The translations under genes were made by a program, and so were the position numbers. Shown here one piece after another: positions 4,176-29,360 of a stretch of 32,000 bases of DNA. The DNA comes from Candidatus Saccharimonadota bacterium (GTDB lineage Bacteria; Patescibacteriota; Saccharimonadia; Saccharimonadales; Saccharimonadaceae): NCBI GenBank assembly GCA_001897305.1, contig MKSO01000001.1, forward strand, positions 660,001 through 692,000, written 5' to 3'. Below the pieces are notes generated by a model. It had not been told where the DNA came from, did no database searches, and saw only the letters and a program-made list of their open reading frames with translations. Position 1 is the first letter of the stretch. The number at the start of each line of letters is the position of its first letter.

Positions 4176-4251
4176 TGGTGCGGGTACAGGGACTCTAACC
4201 CTGGGCCTCATCCTTGGCAAGGATGCGCTCTAACAGCTGAGCTACACCCGC
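4176..4251 (-). tRNA. tRNA-Gly (anticodon GCC), CCA encoded
   Basis: Reverse complement folds as GCGGGTG TA GCTC AGCTGTTA GAGC G CATCC TTGCCAA GGATG AGGCC CAGGG TTAGAGT CCCTG TACCCGC A CCA. This is a 76-nt cloverleaf with anticodon loop TTGCCAA. Confidence 0.9.
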
Positions 4252-4302: not shown

Positions 4303-4767
4303 CTATTTAACGAGCTCGTAAAACACATAGGGTGATCGATGCCCGGTTGCGTAGGCAGCTATATCAACCTCGGCTAAGAAATCTGGCTTTATAGGCACCT
4401 GCTTTGGGTTTACAAAAGCTACGCGCGATAATTCAGCTGCACCGTGGCTGGTGTTTTCAAAATCGATGGTATTAAATAGCGGCGAATCTTCTACCAGCAT
4501 ATGGAATTCGAGTTCTTCGTCAAAACCCTCGCGACCCGACATAAACTGCTGAATAAAAGCCACTTTGTTTGTTGCCTTGGCGATGACGCCAAGTTCTTCG
4601 AAGACCTCTCGCTCGACACCTTCTTGTAATGTTTCGAGCGGGTCGAGCCCGCCGCCCGGTAATGCCCAGTAGTCAGATTCACTACCGTCATCATTTTTAT
4701 GTTTGACCGCTAAAATAGTATCGCCGCGAACAACCAGTGCGCGGACGTTAATGCGTCGTTTTTCCAT
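4303..4767 (-). CDS. NUDIX hydrolase
   Basis: Nudix box GGGLDPLETLQEGVEREVFEELGV (GX5EX7REUXEEXGU). Start set at ATG 4767 (MEKRRINVRALVV), preceded by AAGGAGAGG. The longer track ORF (to 4842) would translate the conserved leader element. Confidence 0.88.
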   Translation of the reverse strand: MEKRRINVRALVVRGDTILAVKHKNDDGSESDYWALPGGGLDPLETLQEGVEREVFEELGVIAKATNKVAFIQQFMSGREGFDEELEFHMLVEDSPLFNTIDFENTSHGAAELSRVAFVNPKQVPIKPDFLAEVDIAAYATGHRSPYVFYELVK

Positions 4768-4796
4768 GTGCCTCTCCTTATAGGTATTGTACTTAT

Positions 4797-4866
4797 TGGT
4801 TAGAAGCGTGAGTGGTTCGGCACGCCCGAACTTGCAGCGCATAGAGGAACCTAGTGGTTCATAGTG
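4797..4866 (-). ncRNA. Conserved structured 5' leader element, copy 1 (upstream of NUDIX)
   Basis: Minus strand reads CACTATGAACCACTAGGTTCCTCTATGCGCTGCAAGTTCGGGCGTGCCGAACCACTCACGCTTCTAACCA. It is homologous to 25271..25340 and has two hairpins (GAACC/GGTTC and GTTCGG/CCGAAC). See findings. Confidence 0.55.
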
Positions 4867-4871
4867 TCGTT

Positions 4872-4899
4872 AGTGTAGCACGAAGAATACTTTTTACAA
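4872..4899 (-). promoter_or_regulatory. Promoter of the NUDIX leader
   Basis: Minus strand reads TTGTAA-16 nt-TACACT. The conserved leader block begins 5 nt after the -10 box. Confidence 0.5.
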
Positions 4900-4937
4900 A
4901 AAACAATTGCGCGCAACTTCTCCACGTATTCCAAGAA

Positions 4938-5108
4938 CTACTTCATAGCCGATATCATAAGACCGATAAAGACACATATTGGCGCTAAAACAAAAACACC
5001 AACAAAACTATAGCGCCACCACCAATGGGGTTTAAGTTCCTGGCCCTTAAGGACAGCTTCGGCTTCTTCTTTGCTCATAGGTTTATGATGCCAACCTTTA
5101 TCCGACAA
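4938..5108 (-). CDS. Possible small membrane protein (46-56 aa), hypothetical
   Basis: Below the track cutoff. From the TTG at 5108 (GAGGT 4 nt upstream) or the ATG at 5078: ..MSKEEAEAVLKGQELKPHWWWRYSFVGVFVLAPICVFIGLMISAMK. It has one C-terminal hydrophobic helix. No family recognised. Confidence 0.25.
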   Translation of the reverse strand: MSDKGWHHKPMSKEEAEAVLKGQELKPHWWWRYSFVGVFVLAPICVFIGLMISAMK

Positions 5109-5281: not shown

Positions 5282-5356
5282 TGGTGCGGGCGGGGAGAGT
5301 CGAACTCCCGTCTCAACCTTGGGAAGGTCACATAATGGCCGTTATACGACGCCCGC
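5282..5356 (-). tRNA. tRNA-Gly (anticodon CCC), CCA encoded
   Basis: Reverse complement GCGGGCG TC GTATAACGGCCATTAT G TGACC TTCCCAA GGTTG AGAC GGGAG TTCGACT CTCCC CGCCCGC A CCA, 75 nt. Confidence 0.88.
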
Positions 5357-5393: not shown

Positions 5394-5903
5394 CTAGAAC
5401 CGCGGGGGCACTTCTTTTGTCATAACAGTGGGTACGCGACCTGCCCTACGTGAATATTGTAATGCCCATAGGTAGGGTCGCCCTCGAATCTTGGAAGTGT
5501 CTTCACTTTTTTGGGCCAGCCGCTTCATAGCTTGCTCGTCTAGCGTGGGTGTGCTCCCAGGCCCAGCTCGGCGTTCATACTGCGTGGCTTTGTTATACTC
5601 ATCAATACTATCGTCACCGCACACACCTTTCACAGACCCTAAGCCCGGGCTGGCCACCCACATTAAATGCCCGGAAATAAATAACCAAGCCACTAGTGCA
5701 ACAAGTACAATACCAACTAAACCTGTCAAAATATCTTCTTCATACCACCCTCTTATATAAATAACGCGAGGCCTGGCGAGGAAATTGCTTCCAACACAAA
5801 ACCCGCCGCCAGGCGGACCTTTCGATCCTGCAAAGGTTTCCCAATGCAACGCGCAAACGAGCCTGAACGACGGGTTCAGTAGTTTGCGCGTTTTTGCCAC
5901 CAT
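5394..5903 (-). CDS. Hypothetical protein; only the C-terminal two-thirds (one TM helix plus soluble tail) looks protein-like, true start uncertain
   Basis: 169-aa track ORF. The first ~55 codons (..GSKGPPGGGFCVGSNFLARPRV..) overlap a run of strong hairpins and look non-protein-like. The remainder contains LTGLVGIVLVALVAWLFISGHLMWVA plus a charged tail. No family recognised. Confidence 0.3.
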   Translation of the reverse strand: MVAKTRKLLNPSFRLVCALHWETFAGSKGPPGGGFCVGSNFLARPRVIYIRGWYEEDILTGLVGIVLVALVAWLFISGHLMWVASPGLGSVKGVCGDDSIDEYNKATQYERRAGPGSTPTLDEQAMKRLAQKSEDTSKIRGRPYLWALQYSRRAGRVPTVMTKEVPPRF

Positions 5904-5982
5904 GCCTTTCGCTATAAAAGCTACTCAGGTTAGGTGGGATCGCCGAATTGTAATAGCGCATTCAAAAAGAATGCTTAAAGTT

Positions 5983-8301: not shown

Positions 8302-8377
8302 TGGTGGCTCCTCCCAGACTCGAACTGGGGACACAAGGCTCTTCAGGCCTCTGCTCTACCAACTGAGCTAAAGAGCC
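8302..8377 (-). tRNA. tRNA-Phe (anticodon GAA), CCA encoded
   Basis: GGCTCTT TA GCTC AGTTGGTA GAGC A GAGGC CTGAAGA GCCTT GTGTC CCCAG TTCGAGT CTGGG AGGAGCC A CCA, 76 nt. Confidence 0.92.
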
Positions 8378-16630: not shown

Positions 16631-16717
16631 TGGTGCGCGTGAGAGGACTTGAACCTCCACGTCCTTGCGAACACTAGCACCTCAAGCTAGCCTGTCTACC
16701 AATTCCAGCACACGCGC
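16631..16717 (-). tRNA. tRNA-Leu (anticodon GAG), long variable arm, CCA encoded
   Basis: GCGCGTG TG CTGG AATTGGTAGA CAGG CTAGC TTGAGGT GCTAG TGTTCGCAAGGACGT GGAGG TTCAAGT CCTCT CACGCGC A CCA, 87 nt. Confidence 0.9.
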
Positions 16718-16764: not shown

Positions 16765-16841
16765 TGGTGGGCGCTGAGGGATTCGAACCCCCGACCCTCT
16801 CGGTGTAAACGAGATGCTCTAGCCAACTGAGCTAAGCGCCC
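16765..16841 (-). tRNA. tRNA-Val (anticodon TAC), CCA encoded
   Basis: GGGCGCT TA GCTC AGTTGGCTA GAGC A TCTCG TTTACAC CGAGA GGGTC GGGGG TTCGAAT CCCTC AGCGCCC A CCA, 77 nt. Confidence 0.92.
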
Positions 16842-25235: not shown

Positions 25236-25264
25236 TTTACAAAACCTTTATTATCTCTTATAGT
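25236..25264 (+). promoter_or_regulatory. Promoter of the GreA-like/ABC exporter operon leader
   Basis: TTTACA-17 nt-TATAGT. The conserved leader block begins 6 nt after the -10 box. Confidence 0.55.
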
Positions 25265-25270
25265 AATTGG

Positions 25271-25340
25271 CACTATGACCCGTATGGGTCCTCTATTCGA
25301 CGACGTTCGGGCGTGCCGAACCAATCGCGAGTCTCTTCCA
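25271..25340 (+). ncRNA. Conserved structured 5' leader element, copy 2 (upstream of the GreA-like gene)
   Basis: CACTATGACCCGTATGGGTCCTCTATTCGACGACGTTCGGGCGTGCCGAACCAATCGCGAGTCTCTTCCA. It is homologous to the minus strand of 4797..4866 and has hairpins GACCC/GGGTC and GTTCGG/CCGAAC. Confidence 0.55.
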
Positions 25341-25372
25341 CTACAAATATAATTCTTAAATAAAGGAGCTGT

Positions 25373-25834
25373 ATGTCCTTAGAGTTTTTTATTCTCTCTG
25401 AAGATCTATCATGGCTTGATGCCCGCATCCATGAGCTTGATAAAACAATCCAAGACCTTGGGCCCGAGTTTTACGATGTATTCAACCAATCATCAGAAAC
25501 ATGGCACGATAACGCACCATTCGATGCGCTGCGTGACAAGCAGTCTGTATTATTTGCTGAATATACTCACCTGCGTGCCATTCGTCAAAAAGCTCAGCTT
25601 TATAGAGACGCAAAAGATGATTCAGTTGTATCAATAGGAAAATATATAACCATCAACAATAAGAAATTTCATATAGCTGGTGACTGGACACGAAATGCCG
25701 GCAAAACCCTTAATGGCATCACTACTATAAGCCGGCAATCGCCTTTGGCTCAAGAAATAATAGGAAAACCAGCAGGAACCCTTACAAAGTATGGAATAAT
25801 TGAAAATATAGTGAGTACATATGGCGACAAATAG
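25373..25834 (+). CDS. GreA/GreB-family transcription elongation factor-like protein
   Basis: 153 aa. The N-terminal coiled coil has the tip-like segment SSETWHDNAPFDALRDKQ (compare GreA ..DLSENAEYDAAKEEQ). The C-terminal domain has VSIGKYITI and ISRQSPLAQEIIGKPAG (compare GreA ISxxSPxGxALLGKxxGD). AAGGAG lies 5 nt upstream. Confidence 0.7.
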   Translation: MSLEFFILSEDLSWLDARIHELDKTIQDLGPEFYDVFNQSSETWHDNAPFDALRDKQSVLFAEYTHLRAIRQKAQLYRDAKDDSVVSIGKYITINNKKFHIAGDWTRNAGKTLNGITTISRQSPLAQEIIGKPAGTLTKYGIIENIVSTYGDK

Positions 25835-27569
25835 AAATACCCTCAAGATTTACCTCGGGCAAATTAAATATCACTTGCCGACGTTTATTATTGCTCTTAT
25901 TTGCATGCCAGCAACAACGCTGCTTATTGATACAGGTCTAGCGTACTTCTTAAGTATGGCTATTGGCGATCTTTCATCGGGCAATACCGCAGCCATGCAG
26001 CAGCATCTTCTATTCGCTGCAATCGTTGGTGGGGCTGGGGTGCTTACAAACTTCATAGGGTTTCAAGCGCTCGTGCAGCACGAGTCACGAATTCGCACGC
26101 GCCTTTACAATTTTGTATTTAGCGCCCTTCTATACAAAGATCTTCAATTCTTTGTAAACGAAAAGGTTGGAGCACTTACAAGCAGGTTCATTGACTTCAC
26201 CCGTTCGCATATTCTCATTCAAGACCTATTGATCATTCGTACACTCGGGTTCAGCCTTTCATTGATCGTAGGGCTTATCATCGTGTCGCAAAGTGCACCT
26301 TTACTGGCGCTTATACTACTCGGGCTCATTATCCTTATAGTGGTTCAAATCAAGGTCTTCACCACTATTCGCGCACCGTTTCGTCACAGACGCAAAAAAT
26401 TAATCGGTGAAATACACGGAGAAATTGCCGACTCCGTAACCAATAGTTTGATGGTAAAAACCTTTGCACAGGAAGAGCACGAAAAGCAGCACTTATACAA
26501 ACGAACTAAGGAACTTGAAAAGGTATTTATTAAAGACATCGCACTTTTTGGCGTTGACGGCACTATCCGTACTAGTATTATGATTTCTACGCAAGTCATC
26601 GCAATTGGTATTGCCGCAACTATGGTCGCAAATGGCCAACTTACCATTGCAATTGCTATATTTTCAATGGCCTACCTGCAACGCCTAGCTTCACAAACCT
26701 TCCAATTAGGCGAACTCATTAACGGCTACGACGAAGCACTCCTCCAGGCCGCACCAATGAGCGACATTCTCACCAAACCCGTCACTGTTTTCGACCAACC
26801 TGGGAGCAAGAAACACATCATAAAAACACCTGCTATAGCATTCCATAATGTCTCGTATCATTACAGCGAAAGTGGTGCGGATGTTATTAAATCATTAGAG
26901 TTAGACATTCCAGCGGGTCAGCGGGTTGGACTAGTGGGACACTCTGGGGCTGGCAAAACAACAATCACTCACCTGCTTCTTCGCTTTGCCGACGCTACGG
27001 GAGGTTCGATAACTATCGATGACGTAGACCTACGTGACTACACACAACAGTCACTTCGTCAACAAATTTCCTACGTTCCACAAGAGCCATTGTTGTTTCA
27101 CCGAAGCCTACGCGAGAACATTGCTTACGGCAATCTCAAAGCATCTGACACTCAAATACGAAAAGCCGCCGAACAGGCAAATGCCCTTGAGTTTATCGAC
27201 GCACTTCCTGATGGGCTCGATACATTAGTTGGTGAACGTGGCGTTAAGTTATCAGGTGGGCAGCGACAGCGTGTCGCCATAGCTCGAGCCATCTTAAAAG
27301 ACGCACCGATATTAATATTGGATGAAGCCACAAGTGCTTTAGACAGCGCCAGTGAGTTGTTAATCCAAAAATCCCTTGGTACTTTAATGAAAGGTCGCAC
27401 CAGTATCGTCATAGCCCACCGTCTTTCAACCATCGCCAAGCTGGATCGTATTATAGTAATGGATGATGGTAAAATAGCCGAAGACGGTACACACGACGAA
27501 CTCCTAAAACGCGGTGGTATATACGCGAAACTATGGGCCCACCAATCTGGCGGATTTATCGAGGAATAA
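25821..27569 (+). CDS. ABC exporter, fused permease/ATPase subunit (MsbA/MdlB-like type I exporter), subunit 1
   Basis: Six-helix TMD followed by an NBD: Walker A GHSGAGKTT, Q-loop, signature LSGGQRQR, Walker B ILILDEATSALD, H-loop IAHRLST. The start overlaps the GreA-like stop by 14 nt. Confidence 0.9.
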   Translation: MATNRNTLKIYLGQIKYHLPTFIIALICMPATTLLIDTGLAYFLSMAIGDLSSGNTAAMQQHLLFAAIVGGAGVLTNFIGFQALVQHESRIRTRLYNFVFSALLYKDLQFFVNEKVGALTSRFIDFTRSHILIQDLLIIRTLGFSLSLIVGLIIVSQSAPLLALILLGLIILIVVQIKVFTTIRAPFRHRRKKLIGEIHGEIADSVTNSLMVKTFAQEEHEKQHLYKRTKELEKVFIKDIALFGVDGTIRTSIMISTQVIAIGIAATMVANGQLTIAIAIFSMAYLQRLASQTFQLGELINGYDEALLQAAPMSDILTKPVTVFDQPGSKKHIIKTPAIAFHNVSYHYSESGADVIKSLELDIPAGQRVGLVGHSGAGKTTITHLLLRFADATGGSITIDDVDLRDYTQQSLRQQISYVPQEPLLFHRSLRENIAYGNLKASDTQIRKAAEQANALEFIDALPDGLDTLVGERGVKLSGGQRQRVAIARAILKDAPILILDEATSALDSASELLIQKSLGTLMKGRTSIVIAHRLSTIAKLDRIIVMDDGKIAEDGTHDELLKRGGIYAKLWAHQSGGFIEE

Positions 27570-27575
27570 TAGAGT

Positions 27576-29360
27576 ATGAAAACGAAAAAAATACCAATTG
27601 AACAACAGCCCGAGACTATTGCAAAAGTACTACGGTATCACTGGCGCCATGCTATGAAATATCGCAAAGAAGTTATTGCAAGCTTTGTAGTTGGACCTAT
27701 TTCAATTGTTATCGACCGTTATATATCGCCTATCTTTATCGCACTCCTTTTAACGGCCATACAGCAGAATACAGCCACGTTGCAAAATTCGATATGGCTG
27801 ATTGTTGGCTACGCTGCCACACAGTTGATTGGGTTTGTTGTTGGTTATCGCGTTAATCTTCATACCATGTGGTCAGTTCAAATTTATGGCGCCCGCGATA
27901 TTAACCAAGAGGCCTATGATGCCATCGCGCGTCAATCGCTAGGCTTTCACAATAATCGGTTTGCTGGCTCATTAGTTTCTCAGGTGAATAAAACCAGTGC
28001 TGCATTTTTTGCCTTCTGGAATATGGTTATCTTTGAAATCATGTTTGCAGTAGTGGCAATTATTGCAACACTCATTAGCGTCGGAATTTTGGCATGGCCG
28101 CTCGCTATTATACTTGCGCTAACAGTGGGGTTATTTATTACCGCATCATATTTTGGGACTCGGTTCATGCGTCCACGCCAGGTGGCACGCTCCAAAGCAA
28201 ATACAAAAGTATCCGGTCAGCTCTCTGATTCAATTGCCAATATTGCAACCGTCAAAATTGAAAGCAATGAAAGAATAGAACGTCAGCGCCTTACGTCGCT
28301 ACTTGACGATGTATTGAAACGCGAACGACACGTGCGTCGTGGCACCATGGCTACTACCACCATAACGTCGTCACTCATTGCTATTAGCCGAGTACTTGCG
28401 CTTGTGGTTGCTGTTTGGGCTGTTCAATCCCATGCCATAAATGCCGGCGTCGTTTATCTCATTATCACCTACACTTTTAACTTGTTTATGGAGTTATGGA
28501 ATATTAGCAACGCCCTTCGAACCATGTATCAAATCACCGGCGACAGCGAGGAGCTACTTTCAATCATCAATCAGCAGTCCGACATTACCGACACAACCAA
28601 AACAGCACTCAAGGCGCCGCACGGTGAAGTACGCATTAGCGACTTAACCTTTGCCCATGAAGATAACGACCCGTTGTTTACTAATTTCGACCTTACTATT
28701 CCCGCTGGTCAAAAGATAGGCGTTGTGGGCGTGAGTGGTTCGGGCAAAACCACCCTTACTCGTCTACTTCTTCGTCTCTCAGAACCGCAGTCCGGTACGA
28801 TTACAGTAGATGGCCAAGATATTTCCAAAGTAAGCCTAGACTCCCTTCATAACGCAATAGCTTATGTGCCTCAAGAACCCTTGCTTTTTCATCGCAGTCT
28901 AGCCGAAAATATTGCCTATTCTAAACCTAAAGCAACGATAGGTAATATCAAGAAGGCAGCCAAAGATGCCCAGGCTTATCATTTTATTAGCTCATTAAAA
29001 GAAGGTTTTGACACGCTGGTTGGCGAGCGCGGCGTTAAGCTCTCGGGCGGACAGCGCCAACGGGTTGCAATTGCCCGAGCGATTCTAAAGGACGCACCTA
29101 TTCTAGTGCTCGACGAAGCAACTAGTGCGCTCGACAGCGAGAGTGAGGCGCTTATTCAAAAAGCCCTAAAAAAGCTCATGGAAGGACGTACTAGCATCGT
29201 CATCGCTCACCGACTTTCCACCATAGCCAAGCTCGACCGTATTATCGTTATGGAAGATGGCGCTATTATAGAAGACGGTTCGCACGAGCAGCTTCTAGCC
29301 AAAAACGGAAAGTACGCCCAGTTATGGGCGCACCAATCCGGTGGATTCATTGAAGAATAA
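27576..29360 (+). CDS. ABC exporter, fused permease/ATPase subunit, subunit 2 (probable heterodimer partner)
   Basis: TMD plus NBD: Walker A GVSGSGKTT, LSGGQRQR, ILVLDEATSALD, IAHRLST. It starts 6 nt after the subunit 1 stop, with GAGGAA upstream. Confidence 0.9.
   Translation: MKTKKIPIEQQPETIAKVLRYHWRHAMKYRKEVIASFVVGPISIVIDRYISPIFIALLLTAIQQNTATLQNSIWLIVGYAATQLIGFVVGYRVNLHTMWSVQIYGARDINQEAYDAIARQSLGFHNNRFAGSLVSQVNKTSAAFFAFWNMVIFEIMFAVVAIIATLISVGILAWPLAIILALTVGLFITASYFGTRFMRPRQVARSKANTKVSGQLSDSIANIATVKIESNERIERQRLTSLLDDVLKRERHVRRGTMATTTITSSLIAISRVLALVVAVWAVQSHAINAGVVYLIITYTFNLFMELWNISNALRTMYQITGDSEELLSIINQQSDITDTTKTALKAPHGEVRISDLTFAHEDNDPLFTNFDLTIPAGQKIGVVGVSGSGKTTLTRLLLRLSEPQSGTITVDGQDISKVSLDSLHNAIAYVPQEPLLFHRSLAENIAYSKPKATIGNIKKAAKDAQAYHFISSLKEGFDTLVGERGVKLSGGQRQRVAIARAILKDAPILVLDEATSALDSESEALIQKALKKLMEGRTSIVIAHRLSTIAKLDRIIVMEDGAIIEDGSHEQLLAKNGKYAQLWAHQSGGFIEE

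Follow-up and report, generated by a model that had tools for sequence, protein, structure and literature searches.

Two MDR-NUDIX RNA motifs (RF02918) lead a NUDIX hydrolase gene and a GreA-like/ABC-exporter operon in a Saccharibacteria genome

The two structured 5' leaders found in this stretch of DNA, one ahead of a NUDIX hydrolase gene and the other ahead of an operon coding for a GreA-like protein and ABC exporters, can be assigned with high confidence to a known family, the MDR-NUDIX RNA motif (RF02918), whose members are cis-regulatory 5' leaders of Saccharibacteria (TM7). When the window (the whole 32,000-nt stretch analyzed here) was scanned against Rfam 15 at gathering thresholds, both elements matched RF02918 (type Cis-reg) along the whole model, positions 1-59 of 59; copy 1 attained 62.7 bits and copy 2 62.6 bits (E about 9e-10 for the whole window), as compared with a gathering score of 54.9 bits. 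At E <= 1 the sense strands of the two leaders matched no further Rfam family. The name of the family, with its MDR-type ABC exporter and NUDIX hydrolase, covers both of the gene contexts that had been noticed in the initial annotation. That annotation had proposed a candidate new cis-regulatory RNA belonging to no known class and had itself named a search of Rfam as the way to check this; the search returned a confident family match, full-length in both copies and with scores exceeding the gathering threshold, and the proposal of a new class is thereby refuted.

The chance that we are dealing with a previously undescribed cis-regulatory RNA is thus close to nil. The name "MDR-NUDIX", like any ligand for the motif, was not found in the searchable literature, and the element is easily overlooked without an Rfam scan; however, in addition to the two copies in the window, all 15 of the homologous genome loci described below pass RF02918, and full-length matches of this kind identify the element as a known family rather than a new class. 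Weinberg et al. (2017) reportedly described the family as one of 224 candidate structured RNAs. As far as the main text of that paper goes (PMC5737381), the motif name is absent from it, and a search for literature on riboswitches with NUDIX, TM7 or Saccharibacteria yielded nothing relevant; among the searchable papers the accession RF02918 turned up in a single one, on the annotation of an unrelated genome.

Position and architecture of the two copies

The initial annotation had described a block shared by two leaders in the same orientation relative to the gene downstream, and this description is exact in both coordinates and sequence. Copy 1 covers 4866 to 4797 of the minus strand and copy 2 covers 25271 to 25340 of the plus strand; each is a block of about 60 nt on the coding strand, directly 5' of the NUDIX hydrolase gene and of the GreA-like/ABC-exporter operon, respectively. 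In a pairwise alignment of the leaders the two copies are identical in CACTATGA, TCCTCTAT and the 19-mer GTTCGGGCGTGCCGAACCA. A degenerate core pattern, ACTATGANCCNNNNGGNTCCTCTA, matches the window exactly twice when up to 3 mismatches are allowed, as against 0.01 matches expected by chance, and none of 100 shuffles contained two or more matches. A search of the window with our own covariance model, with its filters off, returned no third credible copy.

The motif spans about 59 nt and opens with a 5-nt single-stranded ACUAU tail, which is followed by a 5-bp helix, P1, with a free loop, a junction of the form (C)CUCUAY, and a bipartite P2 stem, whose P2a and P2b segments are parted by an asymmetric internal loop and whose P2b segment is capped by an RCGNG loop. 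Copy 1 (4806..4865, minus strand; 60 nt; 70.6 bits with our model R1) displays these elements as the tail at 4865-4861, P1 at 4860-4856 with 4851-4847, the junction CUCUAU at 4846-4841, P2a with its 5' strand at 4840-4836, including one bulged C, and its 3' strand at 4809-4806, and P2b at 4831-4826 with 4820-4815, closed by the loop GCGUG. In copy 2 (25272..25330, plus strand; 59 nt; 72.7 bits with R1), P1 is formed by 25277-25281 with 25286-25290, the junction CUCUAU occupies 25291-25296, P2a pairs 25297-25300 with 25327-25330, and P2b pairs 25305-25310 with 25316-25321, again with the loop GCGUG.

The helices drawn by eye in the initial annotation are those of the Rfam consensus: its first hairpin corresponds to P1 and its 6-bp hairpin to P2b, with P2a supplying the closing pairs around the latter. 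Between the two copies P1 reads GAACC/GGTTC (copy 1) versus GACCC/GGGTC (copy 2) and the closing part of P2a reads GCG..CGC versus TCG..CGA, while P2b is GTTCGG/CCGAAC. Copy 1 forms all 15 of the consensus pairs, with the one bulged C, and copy 2 forms 14 of the 15, with one A/G mismatch in P2a. Both also carry the unpaired blocks of RF02918, namely the 5' ACUAUGA, the CCUCUA junction, the (A/G)CGNG loop and the ACC..CU of the 3' internal loop, and their location, 38 nt 5' of the NUDIX coding sequence for copy 1 and 42 nt 5' of the GreA-like gene for copy 2, likewise fits the family. The departures from the consensus are the loop GCGUG in both copies, where the consensus has ACGAG, and the bulged C in P2a of copy 1, and we see no essential difference: the P1/P2a/P2b architecture, the conserved blocks, the NUDIX and MDR-type ABC exporter context and the Saccharibacteria homologues are all the same.

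Homologues and covariation

Searching 185,579 species genomes for an exact pattern yielded 15 loci, of which 13 are labelled as Saccharibacteria or Saccharimonadales and two only as 'bacterium'; the named genome matches are all from Saccharibacteria MAGs. A second, complementary pattern added 64 metagenome loci, three of which (L051, L068 and L075) hold copies near-identical to those of the window. With our own covariance model, built from 17 copies, we obtained 82 strong copies along with one degenerate variant, which is present in two loci.

Across 71 distinct homologues 97.1% of the cells in the three helices are paired, as against 84.8% upon shuffling, and compensatory double changes occur in 10 of the 15 pairs. 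The corresponding covariation score is 0.340, compared with 0.112 for shuffled alignments and with 0.01-0.06 for registers in which the 3' partners are displaced by 1-3 columns, with the qualification that the homologue alignment was fitted to the model and is hence biased towards the structure. Taken by themselves, the P1 pairs show exchange between UA, AU, CG and GC in about half of the sequences, and in a mutual information analysis with APC correction on 70 distinct sequences only the Rfam helices stand out. As the covariation, the P1 exchanges and the separately computed mutual information agree, we regard the RNA structure as real. The claim that the substitutions between the two leaders preserve pairing is thereby borne out, both for the window copies and for the 82 strong homologues, in which the helices are likewise retained. 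Candidate pseudoknots or tertiary pairings between the tail, junction and loop were rejected, since the ACUA-UAG and loop-CUC pairings are broken by observed variants and the mutual information recovers the Rfam helices only.

While the helices covary, the unpaired blocks are nearly invariant in the homologues, with the proviso that CCUCUA was forced by the search: both patterns demanded TCCTCTA, so that the invariance of this block in the collected set follows from the patterns and its conservation rests on the Rfam consensus. The P1 loop, on the other hand, ranges from 3 to more than 20 nt, and the P2b loop is an ACGG, ACGA or ACGU tetraloop in several homologues. The motif is thus aptamer-like, in that its covarying stems are set around junction and loop positions of high conservation.

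These data bear directly on the reading of the block as a DNA-level element, either an operator for a transcription factor immediately 3' of the promoter or a mobile repeat of the MITE type. The P1 inverted repeat does span +6 to +19, a region in which roadblock operators are located, and the window holds two copies within 32 kb. However, the arms of P1, P2a and P2b change jointly with their pairing kept and the P1 loop varies widely in length, which is the signature of RNA pairing and not of a protein-DNA site. Nor were terminal repeats, target-site duplications or scattered copies found, the window itself holding only the two. The initial annotation had held out a DNA repeat or MITE as what copies in random orientation or position would indicate; the orientation relative to the gene and the distance from it are constant in all copies, both in the window and among the homologues, and a DNA-level origin is extremely improbable.

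Promoters, downstream genes and the apparent regulon

Each copy was said in the initial annotation to start at the predicted +1 of a sigma70-like promoter, and we could confirm this for both. The promoter of copy 1 (4872..4899, minus strand), read from the sequence, has a -35 box TTGTAA at 4899-4894, a 16-nt spacer and a -10 box TACACT at 4877-4872, with an extended -10 TG at 4880-4879; it scores just under the threshold of our consensus scan. The first A of the motif (4865) is the 7th base past the -10 hexamer, i.e. the canonical +1. The promoter of copy 2 (25236..25264, plus strand; TTTACA-17-TATAGT) was found by the scan with 10 of 12 matches, and the motif begins 8 bases past its -10 hexamer. 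The same layout is conserved in 69 homologous upstream regions, with a -35 element TTGC at about -35, a TG at -15/-14 and a -10 element TATAMT at -12 to -7, counted from the first nucleotide of the motif, and with mostly a pyrimidine at -1. Of 63 distinct sequences, 49 have their best -10 hexamer ending 6-8 nt ahead of the motif. This conserved spacing places the A of ACUAUGA at the canonical +1 of a sigma-70-type promoter, making it the predicted transcription start site, an arrangement that we did not find described for this motif in the searchable literature. A sigma-dependent pause element, with TATGAN as a -10-like hexamer, was also considered and dismissed, as the key last position of the hexamer is a covarying P1 base.

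The gene downstream of copy 1 (4303..4767, minus strand) codes for a NUDIX hydrolase of 154 aa (Pfam PF00293, E = 7e-15). A start at the ATG at 4842, which would give a 179-aa ORF, was rejected as an in-frame extension through the motif, and the N-terminus with the pattern M..RR.NVR aligns with homologues starting at the ATG proximal to the Shine-Dalgarno (SD) sequence. Its relatives are only of the generic MutT/NudI type and sub-threshold, and a weak, sub-threshold similarity to the RNA pyrophosphohydrolase models of NCBIfam is one among many others; no substrate can therefore be assigned by sequence. The operon behind copy 2 begins with the gene for a small GreA-like protein (25373..25834, plus strand; 153 aa) with weak matches to the GreA C-terminal region (PF01272, 19.9 bits, below the cut-off; TIGR01462, E = 2e-8) and with no sequence match in the PDB. 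It is followed on the same strand by two genes for MDR/MsbA-type ABC exporter half-transporters (25821-27569 and 27576-29360; Pfam ABC_membrane and ABC_tran), which are co-oriented with it, overlapping or abutting, and whose best matches are MsbA/SmdAB-like, all under the equivalog cut-offs.

This organization recurs in the homologues. A same-strand ORF with a recognizable SD lies downstream of 72 of the 73 distinct leaders, the lone exception being cut by the end of its locus, and the distance from the end of the motif to the start codon is mostly 30-50 nt in these 72. The downstream genes fall into three classes, with 21 NUDIX, 9 GreA-like and 42 ABC exporter genes. Every NUDIX or GreA-like homologue in the fetched loci sits directly behind a copy of the motif; ABC exporters often come next after the GreA-like genes, and the exporter genes are present as single genes, pairs or sets of four. 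Several copies of the motif are present per genome in the window and in the loci L034 and L035. P2a is closed mostly by a G-C pair in the NUDIX class, as against mostly U-A in the ABC and GreA-like classes, and this class-specific difference is the very double change seen between the two copies of the window. The closing pair marks two leader lineages of old standing that exist side by side in the same genome.

Possible modes of control

From the end of the motif to the start codon the spacer measures 38 nt in copy 1 (4768..4805, minus strand; SD AAGGAGAGG at 4779-4771) and 42 nt in copy 2 (25331..25372, plus strand), which has the pyrimidine tract GUCUCUUCC directly 3' of the motif and the SD AAGGAG at 25363-25368. 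Among the homologues the region between motif and SD contains 6.7% G and 22.8% C, as against 19.8% G in control upstream regions, a rough control since many of these are coding. Such a composition, G-poor with more C than G, is rut-like, but the spacer is just 30-50 nt long, and Rho-dependent control would be a speculative possibility. A scan for terminator-like sites on the sense strand of either leader was empty, in line with the earlier remark that neither copy is followed by a U-tract terminator, and we rejected an attenuator based on an intrinsic terminator on this ground and in view of the short (38 and 42 nt), G-poor spacers. A leader peptide was set aside as well: the reading frame opened by the AUG within ACUAUGA is 3 codons long in copy 1 and 25 codons long in copy 2, the AUG is replaced by ACG or AAG in 9 of 70 homologues, and the covariation of P1 at the RNA level speaks against such a reading.

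Whole-leader folding did not reveal an SD-sequestering helix common to all classes, with the mean predicted probability of the SD being unpaired at 0.40 when unconstrained and 0.48 with the aptamer fixed. In the NUDIX class, however, the 3' strand of P2a together with the pyrimidine tail (GCGC-YUYU) is able to pair with the SD region. In copy 1 this tail, GCUUCU (the last 2 nt of P2a and 4 further nt), can pair with AGAGGC of the SD region, with a predicted duplex energy of -9.5 kcal/mol versus -5.9 for shuffled tails (z = -1.6). Across the class the tail/SD duplex, which overlaps the 3' strand of P2a, has z < -1 relative to shuffled tails in 9 of 21 leaders, and cognate tail/SD combinations average -7.59 kcal/mol versus -6.78 for non-cognate ones (permutation p = 0.027, a marginal value that is uncorrected for relatedness). 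No cognate signal was seen in the ABC (n = 35; p = 0.99) or GreA-like (n = 7; p = 0.95) classes; a universal tail/SD sequestering helix was therefore rejected, the signal being confined to part of the NUDIX class. Other candidate interactions fared no better: for the junction CCUCU as an anti-Shine-Dalgarno the median predicted SD pairing to the junction is 0.003, and inspection showed no covariation between the third pair of P1 and the base after the AGGA of the SD; mimicry of the 16S rRNA 3' end (GGAUC-CCUC) is at odds with the free covariation of the GGAUC arm. The G-poor spacer of 30-50 nt, the missing terminator and the lack of a universal SD-sequestering helix, with a weak signal in the NUDIX class only, are likewise points that we did not find described for this motif in the searchable literature.

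Given membership in RF02918, we see about an even chance that the motif is an orphan riboswitch aptamer, which would sense an unwanted nucleotide-like or xenobiotic molecule and raise the expression of a hydrolyse-and-export gene set via translation or mRNA stability; that it is a true riboswitch specifically for a nucleotide-like toxin is a candidate reading whose odds fall at or somewhat short of even. Under this proposal the RNA would act as the aptamer for the unwanted small molecule and would switch on a small detoxification regulon, in which the NUDIX enzyme might hydrolyse the compound and the ABC pump might export it, with the control being exerted after transcription initiation, at the level of translation or mRNA stability. 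For leaders of the NUDIX class, copy 1 among them, the likely route is that P2a would compete with the helix formed by its own 3' strand and the pyrimidine tail with the SD region; since this tail/SD helix excludes P2a, a ligand-stabilized aptamer would free the ribosome-binding site and thus constitute an ON switch. Against this mechanism count the lack of an alternative helix common to the three classes, the small shift in predicted SD accessibility on fixing the aptamer, and the marginal strength of the NUDIX-class signal.

Two known systems offer parallels for such a riboswitch. The ykkC subtype 2c riboswitch binds nucleoside diphosphates and switches on NUDIX and HAD hydrolase genes, and it is thought to raise expression upon the build-up of an unwanted nucleotide (PMC7266159). 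The MDR-NUDIX RNA resembles it in being a 5' leader ahead of NUDIX hydrolase genes, but its fold, size and taxa are unrelated and its gene set includes co-regulated ABC exporters; the ykkC models of Rfam, moreover, gave no match in either leader at E <= 1. The other parallel is with the guanidine-II (mini-ykkC) hairpins with ACGR loops, which are toxic-ligand ON riboswitches ahead of efflux pumps. Here too we have a small, hairpin-based leader before multidrug-type exporters, with an ACG(N)G loop on P2b. However, only one of the two MDR-NUDIX hairpins bears the ACG loop, the P1 loop varies freely, there are extra conserved junctions, and the association with NUDIX genes ill fits guanidine; mini-ykkC gave no Rfam match in either leader, and the likeness is one of resemblance and not of membership.

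A different reading, which we consider rather doubtful, is that a trans-acting protein binds the single-stranded blocks and hairpins of the leader and thereby represses or activates the whole regulon, the candidate binders being the GreA-like factor, the NUDIX enzyme or an unlinked RNA-binding protein. There is no convincing expression platform common to the classes; a CUAY element precedes each of the hairpins (A-CUAU-P1 and CCU-CUAY-P2), giving the look of tandem sites; the multiple copies per genome in the window, L034 and L035 amount to a regulon; and the GreA-like gene is always linked to the motif. Yet many loci comprise just the motif and an ABC exporter, with no candidate regulator nearby, the GreA-like protein has no sequence relative in the PDB and the NUDIX is generic, so that neither marks RNA binding, and the invariance of about half of the positions, in the junctions, is also typical of metabolite aptamers.

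Less probable still is a 5'-end-dependent mRNA stability element, in which the fold, with or without a ligand, would gate the access of an enzyme to the ACUAU tail, be it an RNA pyrophosphohydrolase or decapping NUDIX or an RNase J/E-type nuclease, with the co-regulated NUDIX possibly acting on the 5' end itself as feedback. The fixed -10 spacing in most homologues, which makes ACUAU the predicted 5' terminus of the transcript, is in keeping with this, as are the missing terminator and general SD-sequestering helix and the place of the NUDIX gene, with its weak, sub-threshold resemblance to RNA pyrophosphohydrolase models, as a core member of the regulon. But this NUDIX is equally weakly like MutT, NudI, NudG and NadM-type proteins, which gives no RppH or NudC assignment; ABC exporters are ill-suited to a feedback loop of RNA decay; and the fixed spacing may merely reflect compact intergenic regions. 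Promoter preferences in NCIN capping are such that a pyrimidine at -1 disfavours NAD-type capping, and the mostly pyrimidine -1 position in the homologues is hence unfavourable to it. More speculative again, and in our estimate a long shot, is that sensing involves the 5' terminus itself, through the triphosphate, or else a non-canonical nucleotide cap, on the conserved pppA-CUAU tail. In that event the RNA would control decay or decapping that depends on the 5' end, with a Saccharibacteria-specific 5'-end-sensing regulon whose NUDIX would act on that end; the reading derives from the location of motif nucleotide 1 at the canonical +1 in most homologues together with the absence of an ordinary expression platform.

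Finally, while the two copies in the window are further instances of the catalogued RF02918 and not a new class, they come from a lineage of ultrasmall episymbionts whose gene regulation has been little explored, and of which some members are now cultivable and transformable (PMC11665869). The start at +1, the G-poor spacer, the missing terminator, the class-specific P2a pair and the weak SD competition limited to the NUDIX leaders narrow the range of mechanisms by which this RNA may act. In biological terms, the motif ties a NUDIX hydrolase, a GreA-like factor and MDR-type ABC exporters of Saccharibacteria into one apparent regulon.

GreA-like genes and exporter sets behind the motif

The GreA-like family, of about 150 amino acids, is represented in the window by the gene at 25373-25834 (+), behind the second copy of the MDR-NUDIX RNA motif, and by homologues in seven of the fetched loci carrying the motif (L013, L017, L021, L023, L034, L035 and L044). 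Its members share a conserved N-terminus, ..ILEDDK..RI.ELEK.IQDLGPEFYEVFNQSSETWHDNAPFD; the family has no sequence relative in PDB, and its matches to GreA are sub-threshold only. In the fetched loci these genes occur only directly behind the motif, often with ABC exporters next. The motif-controlled exporter set differs among genomes, ranging from one to four genes, since in locus L064 (892-7973, -) four ABC exporter genes follow in tandem behind a single copy of the motif.

Degenerate variant and motif-SD spacers

Upstream of the GreA-like gene in L035 lies a degenerate variant of the motif (562-618, -; 20.5 bits), and the same variant occurs in L071 (2994-3050, +). It retains P1 and CCUCU but has, in place of P2b, a GUCC-UUCG-GAC hairpin without the ACG loop. 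The variant is arranged back-to-back with a normal motif copy of the class preceding NUDIX genes, the two being only ~55 nt apart with divergent promoters.

Across 72 leaders, the spacers between the motif and the Shine-Dalgarno sequence (SD) are unstructured, A/U/C-rich and strongly depleted in G (6.7% G, 22.8% C), with examples in the window at 4780-4805 (-) and 25331-25362 (+). Such G-poor spacers could offer ribosomes a standby site, or could amount to short rut-like tracts.

Neighborhood of copy 1 and the NUDIX gene start

Just upstream of the promoter of copy 1, the NUDIX-gene leader, is the 3' end of a short ORF of 49 codons (4932-5078, -), which was read by eye and is below the length covered by the ORF list; its product is probably a single-pass membrane peptide, MSKEEAEAVLKGQELKPHWWWRYSFVGVFVLAPICVFIGLMISAMK. 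Five genes for tRNAs also lie in the window, each of them on the minus strand (4179-4251, 5285-5356, 8305-8377, 16634-16717 and 16768-16841); the NUDIX stop codon is followed after only ~50 nt by one of them. A full-length match to the sRNA LOOT (Rfam RF03000; 55.8 bits versus a gathering score of 46.4) spans 5815-5936 (-) and overlaps the 5' part of two mechanically listed ORFs on the same strand, 5394-5903 and 5740-5961; the listed starts of both are therefore probably wrong.

The longest ORF of the NUDIX gene itself (4303-4842, -) begins at an in-frame ATG (4842-4840) within the CUAUGCG junction of the motif. Homologue N-termini and the SD instead point to the ATG at 4767 as the real start. 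Gene callers that favor the longest ORF would hide the motif RNA within a 179-aa CDS.
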